A DNA stretch of 64,000 bases from NCBI RefSeq assembly GCF_003334355.1, contig NZ_QOWP01000004.1; one strand, 5' to 3'. Under the pieces are notes generated by a model. That model saw only the letters and a list, made by a program, of their open reading frames with translations. It was not told the DNA's origin and ran no database searches. This DNA is from Escherichia coli (GTDB taxonomy: Bacteria; Pseudomonadota; Gammaproteobacteria; Enterobacterales; Enterobacteriaceae). Positions 29,266-32,883 of this stretch are shown here, piece by piece (the first letter of the stretch is position 1; every line of letters starts with the position of its first letter). A program made the translations under genes and the position numbers.

Positions 29266-29832
29266 ATGAATATCACTGCTACTGTTCTTCTTGCGTTTGG
29301 TATGTCGATGGATGCATTTGCTGCATCAATCGGTAAAGGTGCCACCCTCCATAAACCGAAATTTTCTGAAGCATTGCGAACCGGCCTTATTTTTGGTGCC
29401 GTCGAAACCCTGACGCCGCTGATCGGCTGGGGAATGGGCATGTTAGCCAGCCGGTTTGTCCTTGAATGGAACCACTGGATTGCGTTTGTGCTGCTGATAT
29501 TCCTCGGCGGGCGAATGATTATTGAGGGTTTTCGTGGCGCAGATGATGAAGATGAAGAGCCGCGCCGTCGACACGGTTTCTGGCTACTGGTAACCACCGC
29601 GATTGCCACCAGCCTGGATGCCATGGCTGTGGGTGTTGGTCTTGCTTTCCTGCAGGTCAACATTATCGCGACCGCATTGGCCATTGGTTGTGCAACCTTG
29701 ATTATGTCAACATTAGGGATGATGGTTGGTCGCTTTATCGGCTCAATTATTGGGAAAAAAGCGGAAATTCTCGGCGGGCTGGTACTGATCGGCATCGGCG
29801 TCCAGATCCTCTGGACGCACTTCCACGGTTAA
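29266..29832 (+). CDS. mntP: Manganese efflux pump MntP
   Basis: ATG 29266 gives 188 aa ([25 protein letters not shown]...); duplicated-halves membrane topology. Confidence 0.92.
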
Positions 29833-30638
29833 TAAGAACGCTGCCAGAGGTGAATATTAAAGTCCGTCTGGCAGTCGAACACTTCTTTTGCTGCCAGTGT
29901 TTGCCAGACTTCTGGCTTCGCACGCCAGGCAAACGGCGTCATCTGCAATAATGCGACGGCTTCATCACCGCGAAGACGCATCGGATAACACAACTCCGCA
30001 CTCTGCTGTAATGTAAAACCTTCCAGTTGTTCTGCATGAGGTGCATGAAGATGTACTTCATTGTAAATCAGCCCCTTCAGCTCCATCAAATGTCGCGGTC
30101 CCGGCGTGGCAGTAATGACCCAGCCGCCGGGCTTCACTACTCGTGCTAATTCTTCTGCTTTACACGGCGCGTAAATACGTATTATGGCGTCCATACTGGT
30201 ATCGGAAAACGGCAAACGGTGGCTGGAAGCGACACAAAAAGTGACCTGCGGATAGCGTTTCGCCGCCGCTTTTATCGCTACCTTCGAAACATCCAGACCA
30301 AACGTGGTGATTTCGGGCAACGCATCGGCAAATGCGTGTGTGTAATACCCTTCACCACAGCCAATATCCAGCACCGCCGTGGCCTTATCATCAAGCCGTT
30401 CCCTCAGTTGGGCGACAATTGCATCACGCAGCGGCTGATAATGTCCGGCATCTAAGAATGCGCGGCGTGCTTGCATCATTTCCGCGCTGTCGCCCGGATC
30501 ACGAGACCGTTTATGCTGAACGGGCAGCAGATTGACATACCCTTCTTTCGCCATATCAAACTGATGTCGCTGGGGACAGATATAGCTGTTTTTTTCACGC
30601 GAAAGAGGCTGATGGCAAAGTGGACAGGAAAAAGACAT
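29829..30638 (-). CDS. rlmA: 23S rRNA m1G745 methyltransferase RlmA
   Basis: 269 aa; N-terminal Zn-finger cysteines (CPLCHQPL...YICPQRH) plus SAM-MTase motif ([11 protein letters not shown]). Confidence 0.93.
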
Positions 30639-30730
30639 GACAACTCCGGCAGGATACTAAAGGCCGCAAGTGTAACGCGAATCACGCGGCGGGCAAATAT
30701 CCGAACGCCAGGAGCGAAGATAAAGCATAG

Positions 30731-30757
30731 TAAAAAGCCTCGCATTCGACGAGGCTT
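30731..30757 (-). terminator. Rho-independent terminator after cspC
   Basis: Minus strand: gcctcg-tcgaatg-cgaggc hairpin followed by a T-run. Confidence 0.6.
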
Positions 30758-30803
30758 TATAGCGAGATTGAAGCGTATTCACACTTCAGATCAGTGGATT
30801 CGA

Positions 30804-31013
30804 TCAGATAGCTGTTACGTTAACAGCTGCCGGACCTTTCTGGCCGTCCTGAATTTCGAACTCAACGTTCTGACCTTCAGCCAGAGTTTTGAAGCCATTA
30901 CCCTGGATAGCGGAGAAGTGTACGAACACGTCTTTGCTGCCATCAGCCGGAGTAATGAAGCCAAAACCTTTAGACTCGTTGAACCACTTAACCTGACCTT
31001 TAATCTTTGCCAT
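30804..31013 (-). CDS. cspC: Cold-shock-like protein CspC
   Basis: 69 aa with RNP motifs (KGFGFI, VFVHF). Confidence 0.95.
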
Positions 31014-31025
31014 TTGAAAAATTCC

Positions 31026-31169
31026 TTAGATTGTTTTCTTCGCCCGCAGGCATAACATAGATAAAACTGACACATTACTGCATGAGGCACCAATATAAGG
31101 CTCGGCAGAGAAGCGGTATTCAACGTCAACGTGTTTACTCAGGACTTCTTTACTGAAAATGCCACACAT
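31026..31169 (-). CDS. yobF: Small protein YobF (47 aa), upstream gene of the yobF-cspC operon
   Basis: Minus-strand translation [47 protein letters not shown]; stop 12 nt before the cspC start; below the ORF-track cutoff. Confidence 0.75.
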
Positions 31170-31837
31170 AAACAGAACTGTACCTCGTTTAACCCGAAAT
31201 CTGTTATCACATACAACGTTAATTATGGCAAGCCATTTTTAAACATGTCTCGATCAGACGCACAAATCTCGATACGTCTTCCACTTTTTTTGCACACTTA
31301 TGCAACGGAATACGCGCCGATATATCATTGTGCTTAACCTTGCCAGTTCAGGCAGATACTTAAACTGGCGTAGTTTCTAACATAGTTCAATAAGTTCAGT
31401 TGTTCCAGGCCAGTGGGAGAAGTTATTACATAGTGCGTGCAATATCACATTTTTTGCTATGCAATGAATAAAAAGTTATATCACTTTTTCTCATAAAACA
31501 GTCAGTTAACGGCTATCAATTACCCTAAAGAGAAGTCAATCCCCAAAGGGATTGAAAATTTAAAATAAGAAAAATTGATGAATGAGCAAAAAATCAAGAG
31601 AGAAACGTTTCGCTAATAAATAATACCACGCTTAATCACAAATCCGATGTAAACATCCTAATAAATTAATGAGGAAAATATCTTTTTCTGATATCCCGTT
31701 ACGCAAATAAATAATATGATAATTATTTGAAGTCAGACCAGAGTTTTAATTTGAAGCAGTTGCACCATGGCAGTGCGTATAATCAGGATGAATTGAGTAA
31801 CCCTTCAACGACGGGGTTACTCAAGATTGAGGAAGGA

Positions 31838-32125
31838 TTATCGTTCGGCGACCAGACGAATAATATCTTCGTCTTCAACCGATTTTTGACTCTCAACGGT
31901 CTTTTTATCTGCTTTCTCAGGTTCGTTTGCTTCGCACAAACGACGTAACAGTGCATTTTGACGTTTTTGCTGATCCAGCAACGCCTCAAGCAGTTCAATC
32001 TGTTCGTTAGTCCGAGAACTGGCACGATTGATAAAAAACCACAAGATGAGCCCGATAAGAAGAACCACCACCGATACAACCAAAGACGCAATGTTCATCA
32101 CGCCTGAATTTACAACTTCGTTCAT
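31838..32125 (-). CDS. yebO: Small membrane protein YebO
   Basis: 95 aa; one N-terminal TM helix then a charged tail. Confidence 0.88.
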   Translation of the reverse strand: MNEVVNSGVMNIASLVVSVVVLLIGLILWFFINRASSRTNEQIELLEALLDQQKRQNALLRRLCEANEPEKADKKTVESQKSVEDEDIIRLVAER

Positions 32126-32199
32126 TTCACCACCTCTGAGTAGAGGTGCTATTCTACCACTGCTGGAGAGGAAGAAAATCTAGTGCTGAAAAAATGATA

Positions 32200-32343
32200 T
32201 CACCACGGGATAAACTGGTTAATGGCACAAATTCCGCTGAAAAATTGTACATCCTGATCGCACATCATGTTGAATACCTGCGCCCAAAGCAGCAAGCAAG
32301 CCAACACCACGACAACCAGAACGACCCATCGAAACTTTTTCAC
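32200..32343 (-). CDS. mgrB: PhoQ feedback inhibitor MgrB (47 aa)
   Basis: Minus-strand translation (M)[49 protein letters not shown] start at 32341-32343 with GGAG SD 6 nt upstream. Confidence 0.8.
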
Positions 32344-32501
32344 TCCAATCTCCGCTTCACCTACCTTATGTCATTAAACTAGCATGCGTTAGTTAAACAG
32401 CGCCTAACTATGTCGATATTCGTGCTTTTTCGGAATGAGTAGCTTGCTTCAGCGCATATTGCCGCTACGATTAAGCGAACATAAAAAGAGAAGAGGTTGT
32501 A

Positions 32502-32741
32502 ATGCGATTCATCATTCGCACAGTTATGCTGATAGCACTGGTATGGATAGGATTATTACTCAGCGGATATGGCGTTTTGATTGGAAGCAAAGAGAATGCC
32601 GCAGGATTAGGTTTGCAATGTACCTATCTGACTGCCAGAGGCACCAGCACGGTACAATACTTGCACACTAAAAGTGGTTTCTTGGGGATAACAGATTGCC
32701 CACTGTTACGTAAAAGCAATATCGTGGTCGATAATGGTTAA
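32502..32741 (+). CDS. yobH: Small membrane protein YobH
   Basis: 79-aa ORF MRFIIRTVMLIALVWIGLLLSGYG...; recognised as YobH. Confidence 0.85.
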   Translation: MRFIIRTVMLIALVWIGLLLSGYGVLIGSKENAAGLGLQCTYLTARGTSTVQYLHTKSGFLGITDCPLLRKSNIVVDNG

Positions 32742-32883
32742 GGGTAATAAATAACCAGATTCTCACTCATGAGTAAAATATTCTTATAGCAAGCGCGTTT
32801 AATATAACGCACCTTCAACTTTATTTTTCTCATGCTAAATAAAGAACCTGTCTGTTTGATATTCCGACAGGTTCTTACTCTCA

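Follow-up and report, generated by a model that had tools for sequence, protein, structure and literature searches.

The yobF-cspC operon of Escherichia coli encodes the global RNA chaperone CspC and is separated from its upstream neighbour yebO by a gap of 668 bp, which we call the spacer. We analysed this spacer in a stretch of 64,000 nucleotides from an E. coli genome (NCBI RefSeq assembly GCF_003334355.1, contig NZ_QOWP01000004.1). This whole stretch is referred to as the window, and positions are window positions unless stated otherwise. The locus is like that of E. coli K-12, with a gene order identical to that of strain MG1655 (window position = NC_000913.3 position minus 1876422, or U00096.2 position minus 1874446). 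It belongs to the core genome of the species: a 1.7-kb query was covered to at least 80% in 5419 of 5426 complete genomes. Our results suggest that the spacer is probably the upstream control region of the yobF-cspC operon joined to the 3' end of yebO, and that it hides no gene. Two overlapping promoters stand next to yobF in almost invariant DNA and, further upstream, a series of conserved islands is separated by freely diverging DNA of near-constant length. Loss of yobF-cspC has been described as a recurrent adaptive route both in aging E. coli colonies (PMC13162491) and in succinate utilisation by Salmonella (PMC10965054). The finding is real but ordinary, and one candidate operator-like site is the sole part of it worth an experiment.

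Base composition and coding content

An earlier note on this DNA, made from the sequence alone, had singled out the interval as an unusually long, strongly AT-rich, non-coding stretch of about 670 bp, and that description holds in each respect. The equivalent 669 bp of the MG1655 RefSeq record (1907592-1908260) carry no annotation between yobF and yebO. Among the gaps between open reading frames (ORFs) of at least 90 amino acids in the window, the spacer is one of the four longest; another of the four, 32092-32883, contains the small genes mgrB and yobH. The guanine-plus-cytosine (GC) fraction is 0.355 in the spacer and 0.307 in its central part (31380-31760), against 0.502 for the window as a whole. 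Only 0.19% of 668-nt segments are equally AT-rich, and the GC minimum of the entire window falls in the spacer. A/T tracts of at least four bases number 13, where 668 nt of the window have 7.2 on average (top 6%), and their phasing at 10-11 bp within the spacer is not significant. The only ORFs of at least 60 amino acids that touch the spacer, 31131-31337 (+ strand, 68 amino acids) and 31727-31948 (+ strand, 73 amino acids), are, as the note had said of the frames called there, short antisense overlaps of yobF or yebO. The features discussed below are collected in Table 1.

Table 1. Genes and sequence features in and around the yobF-yebO spacer (window positions)
Feature	Position	Strand	Description
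rlmA	29829-30638	-	
cspC	30804-31013	-	
yobF	31026-31169	-	
Short yobF leader	31170-31195	-	25-26 nt; 5' end of a cspA-like mRNA element running through yobF and cspC
Core promoter block	31196-31267	-	Ultra-conserved; ATTTGTGCG..GATCGAGACAyGTTTAAAAATGGCTTGCCAT..ACGTTGTATGTGATAACA
Proximal promoter	31203-31231	-	TTGCCA (31231-31226), 17-nt spacer, GATAAC (31208-31203); serves start 31194/31195
Second promoter	31222-31251	-	Overlaps the first; GAGACA, 18-nt spacer, (TG)CATAAT; promoter scan
Block E	31291-31304		Palindrome-like TGCATAAGTGTGCA, consensus yGCATAAnTrTGCA; ~100 bp upstream of the start site
Block D	31373-31408	-	Consensus CTGGACGAA..TTGAGCTATGGTAAAAAAG; weak-promoter-like TGGACG, 17-nt spacer, TATGGT
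Block C	31442-31472	-	In other genera, a second copy of the palindrome TGCATAAnTATGCA
Hairpin	31536-31555		Perfect 8-bp stem, TCAATCCC-TTTG-GGGATTGA; E. coli-specific
Block B remnant	31558-31598	-	Consensus TTGCCTnnnnnnGAGGCA..GTCATnnnnnTTTCATTATTTTGGTGCA
Block A	31599-31614		LacI-family-type palindrome AGCGAAACGTTTCTCT; ~405-420 bp upstream of the yobF start
AT-rich filler	31640-31782		Lineage-specific; alignable within Escherichia, partly with Salmonella and Citrobacter
yebO 3' hairpin	31783-31826	-	11-bp stem without a U-tract, leaky terminator; fold
yebO	31838-32125	-	
mgrB	32200-32343	-	

Comparison of 77 loci

A scan of species-representative genomes for YebO provided 80 loci from approximately 30 enterobacterial genera. 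Of these, 76 have cspC downstream; adding the window itself gives the 77 sequences that we analysed. The non-coding part, taken from the end of yebO or from the end of a hydrolase gene described below, was aligned with MAFFT. The loci fall into two classes. In the short class, comprising Escherichia, Salmonella, Citrobacter, Klebsiella, Raoultella and the Enterobacter cloacae and E. hormaechei groups, yebO and yobF are approximately 600-750 bp apart; in the long class, comprising Lelliottia, Kosakonia, Leclercia, Buttiauxella, Cedecea, Phytobacter and some Enterobacter, the distance is approximately 1540 bp.

Identity along the alignment is 0.81-0.99 over 31014-31270. It is 0.5-0.75 in four islands (31288-31307, 31368-31417, 31438-31467 and 31558-31627) and 0.16-0.46 in the DNA between them, and 31680-31837 consists mostly of gaps. 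The earlier note had proposed that its interest in the spacer would be refuted if transcript maps showed a single yobF-cspC leader and no conserved elements beyond promoter motifs. The maps do show a single yobF-cspC start, but conserved elements exist well beyond the core promoter. From the yebO stop codon to the cspC start codon, GC is 0.34-0.37 in Escherichia, 0.37-0.39 in Salmonella and 0.39-0.43 in Citrobacter and Klebsiella, so that the spacers of Escherichia are the most AT-rich among the genera compared.

Promoters and leader of yobF-cspC

Two overlapping sigma-70/sigma-S promoters lie within approximately 31203-31251, where some 70 bp are almost invariant across the Enterobacteriaceae. 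The core promoter block has an identity to E. coli of 0.81-0.95 in the 73 non-Escherichia loci, and its sub-blocks are present in 72-75 of the 77 sequences. The hexamers of the proximal promoter are those of Shimada 2014 (PMC3946193), with positions read off the window sequence; the part of the PMC2760140 supplement that concerns yobF (Mendoza-Vargas 2009) places the -35 element at GGCTTGCCA. TTGCCA-17-GATAAC ends 7 nt before the start at 31195, as expected of a sigma-70/sigma-S promoter. The same supplement entries give a yobF start site 25/26 nt before the ATG, mapped by rapid amplification of 5' cDNA ends (5'RACE) and 454 sequencing. The yobF-cspC entry in the PMC6131387 supplement, obtained by SMRT-Cappable-seq, runs from 1907617 (31195) to 1907153 (30731). 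A sigma-S peak from chromatin immunoprecipitation with sequencing spans 1905547-1905784 (31101-31338), with the start site at 1905641, again 31195.

The second promoter was found by scanning the sequences of E. coli, Citrobacter koseri and Salmonella diarizonae. By homology with Salmonella it would initiate near 31217 and yield a 48-nt leader, the Salmonella yobF 5' untranslated region (5'UTR) having been cloned for reporter fusions from GTTGTATGTG, which corresponds to 31217. The names yobFp1 and yobFp2, which PMC13162491 derives from EcoCyc, could not be assigned to the two sites. Thus the promoters that had been predicted for the spacer are present, as two sites with recognisable hexamers and mapped start sites. 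For the main transcript, the long leader predicted along with them is replaced by a short one, which measures 25-26 nt in E. coli and, in Salmonella, 48 nt; promoters and leader together account for approximately 100 of the 668 bp (about 31170-31270). A start far upstream in Salmonella (at least 182 nt, at block D), which we had deduced from Table 1 of PMC10965054, was ruled out by the 5'UTR primer at 31217. With the start at 31217, the insertions listed there as 'Tn5 in the 5'UTR' would fall in the 3' part of yobF; this placement puts the cspC insertion coordinate of the same table outside cspC, so that the table is not fully reconciled.

The leader, with an identity of approximately 0.99 across genera, forms part of a larger RNA element. 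The Rfam family RF01766 (cspA thermoregulator) matches 30729-31189 on the - strand with 135.7 bits (gathering score 78). Because the ends of this match coincide with the mapped ends of the mRNA, we place the leader in a cspA-like mRNA element that contains yobF. As in the cspA-type thermoregulator, the match extends from the first nucleotides of the message (31189) to its terminator (30729); only approximately 20 nt of it lie in the spacer, however, and it therefore explains the leader and not the spacer. The small RNAs CyaR and OxyS act post-transcriptionally on the short leader, and the known control of yobF-cspC is mostly of this kind.

The yobF ORF itself sits inside the RF01766 match. Its first 60 nt or so are approximately 99% identical across genera, its length by genus is 15, 24, 32, 38, 43, 47, 48, 55 or 56 amino acids, and a frameshift or early stop interrupts it in 8 of 74 loci. 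A nearly identical 5' part in an ORF that is variable and sometimes disrupted suggests that constraint on yobF at the RNA level is at least as strong as constraint on the protein.

On the + strand at 31224-31239, TGGCAAGCCATTTTTA resembles a sigma-54 -24/-12 element, lacking the GC of the -12 box, when compared with the sigma-54 consensus TGGCAC-N5-TTGCA. It overlaps the yobF -35 element and adjoins a peak for RpoN at 1905652 (31206) from genomic systematic evolution of ligands by exponential enrichment (SELEX). RpoN, whose published binding to the spacer is given together with NtrC, is reported to act negatively on yobF-cspC in nitrogen limitation, and the overlap with the -35 element would fit such repression.

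Conserved blocks B to E

Upstream of the core promoter, the islands resolve into five blocks, of which A is treated separately. Block E is probably a transcription factor site. The motif TGCATAAnTrTGCA is found with at most three mismatches in 65 of the 77 loci, 39 of which have it in two separate places; E. coli keeps only block E. The second place corresponds to block C, whose E. coli version, TTGCATAGCAA (31464-31454), has diverged.

Block D reads as a predicted weak promoter. Its identity across genera is 0.5-0.72, an A-run follows it, and conservation stops at the expected transcription start. The consensus is matched with at most four mismatches in 67 of the 77 loci; E. coli has more than four, its degenerate copy being TGGAAC, a 17-nt spacer and TATGTT. 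No start site at block D occurs among the SMRT-Cappable-seq entries for this region in the PMC6131387 supplement. The core of block B, TTTCATTATTTTGGTGCA, is found in 66 of the 77 loci and is exact in 35; in E. coli it has more than three mismatches and the core is lost.

Blocks B to D are intact in Enterobacter, Citrobacter and Lelliottia and appear to be decaying in Escherichia. Since the blocks are degenerate there and the GC content of the spacer is the lowest of the genera, this would amount to a decay of part of the upstream architecture in that genus, and E. coli K-12 is accordingly a poor model for blocks B to D. The conservation map as a whole tells which 100 bp or so of the 670-bp spacer to mutate.

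Several known factors were considered for the blocks. Consensuses for CRP, Cra, KdgR, NtrC, CytR and NsrR gave no fit that held in all the genera. Block B has a half-site, GGTGCA, that is similar to the NtrC half-site and is absent from Escherichia. The E. coli form of block E is similar to CytR octamers, a likeness that is not conserved.

A palindrome resembling the ribose operator

Block A resembles a characterised operator. It is identical at 15 of 16 positions to rbsO (AGCGAAACGTTTCGCT), the operator at which RbsR, a member of the LacI/GalR family, controls the rbsDACBKR operon; the rbsO sequence was taken from the oligonucleotide used for RbsR-DNA crystallisation and located 15 bp upstream of rbsD in MG1655. 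An rbsO-type site is a 16-bp dyad of the half-sites AGCGAAAC and GTTTCGCT about a central CG, and block A too is a 16-bp palindrome with CG at its centre. No other match to rbsO with three or fewer mismatches occurs in the 64-kb window, and simple arithmetic gives approximately 0.05 expected occurrences per whole E. coli genome for a 16-mer with at most one mismatch.

The site is conserved across genera and in place. Of the 77 loci, 69 have the core GAAACGTTT, and its distance from cspC varies little (546-630 nt) despite the heavy divergence of the intervening DNA. The full site is found with at most three mismatches in 60 loci, 18 of them with one mismatch, 18 with two and 24 with three; the 18 with a single mismatch form the Escherichia/Salmonella/Citrobacter clade. 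In three other Escherichia loci, block A is identical and its flanks differ, as expected of orthologous conservation of the site itself.

From this resemblance, block A would be bound by RbsR or by a close LacI-family relative. Its mode of action would have to differ from that of rbsO, which sits 15 bp before the rbsD start codon. Given that block A lies 405-420 bp from the nearest mapped start and directly downstream of the upstream gene, the most plausible modes are a roadblock to read-through or upstream-initiated transcription and looping to the proximal promoters. PurR is said to act as such a roadblock at an operator inside purB, in work reportedly by He and Zalkin in 1992. The likeness is that of a LacI-family operator remote from the promoter that elongating RNA polymerase has to pass, the polymerase here arriving by read-through from yebO or, in other genera, from the hydrolase gene. 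The analogy serves for a possible mechanism only, and a roadblock at block A is hypothetical.

If block A is a genuine remote operator, RbsR or a relative would couple the availability of sugars or nucleosides to CspC levels, a proposal that we regard as doubtful and that nevertheless yields a concrete and cheap hypothesis, namely that RbsR binds 31599-31614. Genomic SELEX for RbsR gave five peaks, and we found no link between RbsR or PurR and yobF or yebO in the literature searched. In a Salmonella screen, loss of rbsR and loss of cspC both relieve a block on growth on succinate; the authors ascribe the effect of rbsR to RpoS and make no connection to cspC (PMC10965054). The co-occurrence of the two genes is suggestive, and we treat it as coincidence and not as evidence. 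Were the remote operator real, it would link these two genes directly and would bring a global RNA chaperone into the small RbsR regulon.

Beside block A, Salmonella and Citrobacter share a clade-specific conserved element, TTTTGTGATAnCGATCGTTTT, approximately 16-40 nt upstream (for example at 4450-4480 of locus L071). In C. koseri it scores as a terminator-like hairpin with a T-run in the yebO/yobF direction and could also be a poor CRP site; E. coli retains only TTTGTGAT of it.

Protein binding and the nucleoid

The spacer binds RpoD (several peaks), RpoS, RpoN and H-NS in vitro. In the '670 bp spacer', a genomic-SELEX site for H-NS and multiple peaks for RpoD were reported (PMC3946193), and an RpoS genomic-SELEX peak maps to approximately 31322. 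The suggestion in the earlier note that the spacer might be a region bound by nucleoid proteins draws support from the published in-vitro H-NS site and the extreme AT content, but none from a specific nucleation motif or a curvature signal, the high-affinity H-NS motif (TCGATAAATT-like) not being enriched in the spacer.

The same locus was described by Shimada et al. 2014 (PMC3946193) as an H-NS-bound 'type-B spacer', with yobFp1 and yobFp2 of RegulonDB/EcoCyc. Such descriptions end at the holoenzyme and H-NS peaks; the conserved blocks further upstream and their decay, the rbsO-like palindrome and the polymorphism in gene content do not feature in them. A multi-promoter, H-NS-bound spacer is therefore already on record. 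For the conserved blocks, the rbsO-like site, the decay in Escherichia and the hydrolase polymorphism, we found no earlier report in the literature searched; they are new instances of familiar kinds.

The distal end of the spacer

The hairpin that follows yebO is stable (-18.4 kcal/mol, z = -3.43), and its tail, AAUUCAUCC, has no U-run, so that it does not qualify as an intrinsic terminator. The missing U-tract agrees with recorded read-through: the entries for this region in the PMC6131387 supplement include an operon labelled 'novel', yebO-yobF-cspC, which arises by read-through from the start of yebO at 1908567 (32145), together with an mgrB-yebO transcript from 1908792 (32370). In view of these two transcripts, mgrB, yebO, yobF and cspC can be transcriptionally linked.

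Between this hairpin and block A lies AT-rich filler. Identity is 0.07-0.22 with 40-80% gaps over 31782-31680 and rises to 0.3-0.4 nearer block A. These distal 200 bp or so are specific to Escherichia and close relatives, and they occupy the position of a gene in other genera. In 30 loci, which constitute the long class, an ORF of 331-335 amino acids for an MBL-fold metal-dependent hydrolase directly follows yebO (for example 4308-5303 in locus L009 and 4310-5317 in locus L029; equivalent window position approximately 31640-31837). It matches NF001911 weakly, with 61-74 bits, under the cut-off. Escherichia, Salmonella, Citrobacter and Klebsiella lack the hydrolase, and a C-terminal remnant of 21-32 amino acids persists in two loci of the E. 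hormaechei group (L070 and L053). We infer that the distal 200 bp are filler left by gain or loss of this gene.

Weighing the interpretations

Taken together, these results favour the spacer as a control region, in which the conserved islands would be transcription factor sites that modulate the strong proximal promoters. In Escherichia the spacer may have drifted to a very low GC content, which would favour the binding of H-NS. A number of observations weigh against this interpretation. The right half-site of the rbsO-like palindrome is degenerate (2-3 mismatches) in most genera outside the Escherichia/Salmonella/Citrobacter clade, which leaves room for a different member of the LacI family, for instance PurR, as the factor; the core is missing altogether from Klebsiella, Raoultella and a few other loci (8 of 77). 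Operators of repressors usually lie at or just downstream of the repressed promoter, but the nearest mapped start is 405 bp away, an unusual distance, and scans of E. coli, C. koseri, S. diarizonae and Enterobacter cloacae gave no convincing promoter beside the site. H-NS binding is known in vitro only, and A-tract phasing, like the H-NS motif, is not enriched. The SELEX peaks are of low resolution, and those that can be positioned fall close to the proximal promoter or in the interval from there to block D. The start sites come from parts of the published supplements, and the spacer may have a minor start site besides. Finally, a microarray study of run-off transcription in vitro found that the intergenic probe IG1905616_1906284-f, on the forward strand, was transcribed approximately 2.4-fold better by sigma-S than by sigma-70 polymerase, which the interpretation leaves unexplained. 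The same preference was seen for c2230, an ORF of strain CFT073 antisense to cspC, and the two probes hint at a + strand (antisense) transcript that we could not place.

This sigma-S preference is also part of the case for an unannotated small RNA, which the earlier note had thought the spacer large enough to hold. On the - strand it might start at block D or at a promoter near the operator and block B; on the + strand it would be antisense to or divergent from the yobF promoter. Block D does read as a conserved weak promoter, with conservation ending at the would-be start and, in many genera, a stable hairpin just downstream. Yet the sequence between the blocks is unconserved, and E. coli itself has only degenerate copies of blocks B, C and D. 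The Rfam scan of the spacer returned only cspA above chance level (CRISPR-DR25, snoRNAs and ncr1015 being at chance level), and 31195 is the only start within the spacer among the SMRT-Cappable-seq entries listed in the PMC6131387 supplement. The structure signal is weak. Between blocks D and E, 37% of loci have z < -2 with mononucleotide shuffles, a signal that is mostly lost when the shuffles preserve dinucleotides and a control stretch is set beside it (mean z = -0.86, control -0.51). In Klebsiella and several Citrobacter, a hairpin and T-run at block D would make a + strand terminator, but the hairpin closes within 3 nt of the run in only 37 of 62 loci and reaches -8 kcal/mol or lower in only 18, so that we rejected a conserved terminator there. 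The E. coli hairpin at 31536-31555 is terminator-like on the - strand, and its CRISPR-DR25 match is at chance level (E = 0.53); neither the three other Escherichia loci, E. albertii among them, nor any of the other genera have it, and it is therefore probably not functional. The combination of own promoter, conserved body, intrinsic terminator and mapped transcript that marks a small RNA gene was thus not found, and we consider such a gene very unlikely. A small protein, also raised in the earlier note, is more improbable still, indeed barely credible. Many ORFs of 8-28 amino acids occur on both strands, a few with Shine-Dalgarno-like sequences, but of the 25 ORFs tested (at least 8 amino acids and reaching at least 10 nt into the spacer) none keeps its start, frame and stop across three other Escherichia, two Salmonella and seven Citrobacter loci, save two that overlap the ultra-conserved promoter and leader DNA, and the curated MG1655 record has nothing there. 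The spacer can accordingly be dropped from the list of candidate hidden genes.

Two further explanations were considered. Most of the spacer could be a long 5' leader, either from a promoter at block D (a leader of approximately 200 nt) or by read-through from yebO. The yebO-yobF-cspC transcripts, the promoter-like block D, the RpoS peak upstream of the proximal promoters and the several RpoD peaks would all suit this possibility, which we nonetheless hold to be unlikely: every mapped start lies at -25/-26 in E. coli or -48 in Salmonella, the read-through form is listed as a separate operon variant and not as the main transcript, and from block D to the core promoter nothing but block E is conserved. 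Alternatively, the E. coli spacer could be a decayed pseudogene of the hydrolase that follows yebO immediately in the 30 long-class loci and that, to judge from the remnant in the E. hormaechei group, has been lost by deletion at least once. No trace of residual similarity was found, however, by tblastn in E. coli, Salmonella or Citrobacter at E <= 10, and the event can be read as gain as well as loss. Moreover, in the long-class loci the stop codon of the hydrolase comes before blocks A to E, and hence the bulk of the E. coli spacer (31170-31630) has its homologue in non-coding DNA there; at most the distal 200 bp or so could be a scar. We therefore think it very improbable that the spacer is such a pseudogene.

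An insertion sequence in related strains

In some of the closest E. coli matches the distal part of the spacer is interrupted by the insertion sequence IS1A, which separates the yebO hairpin from the remainder of the spacer and lies approximately 570 bp upstream of the yobF start and within the non-conserved part. The 9-bp target duplication corresponds to 31769-31777, and the junction was verified in locus L002 (NZ_CP060969.1). Other top E. coli matches, including a strain named for ST361, give the same two-piece match with IS1 annotated, and form a clade of clinical strains.

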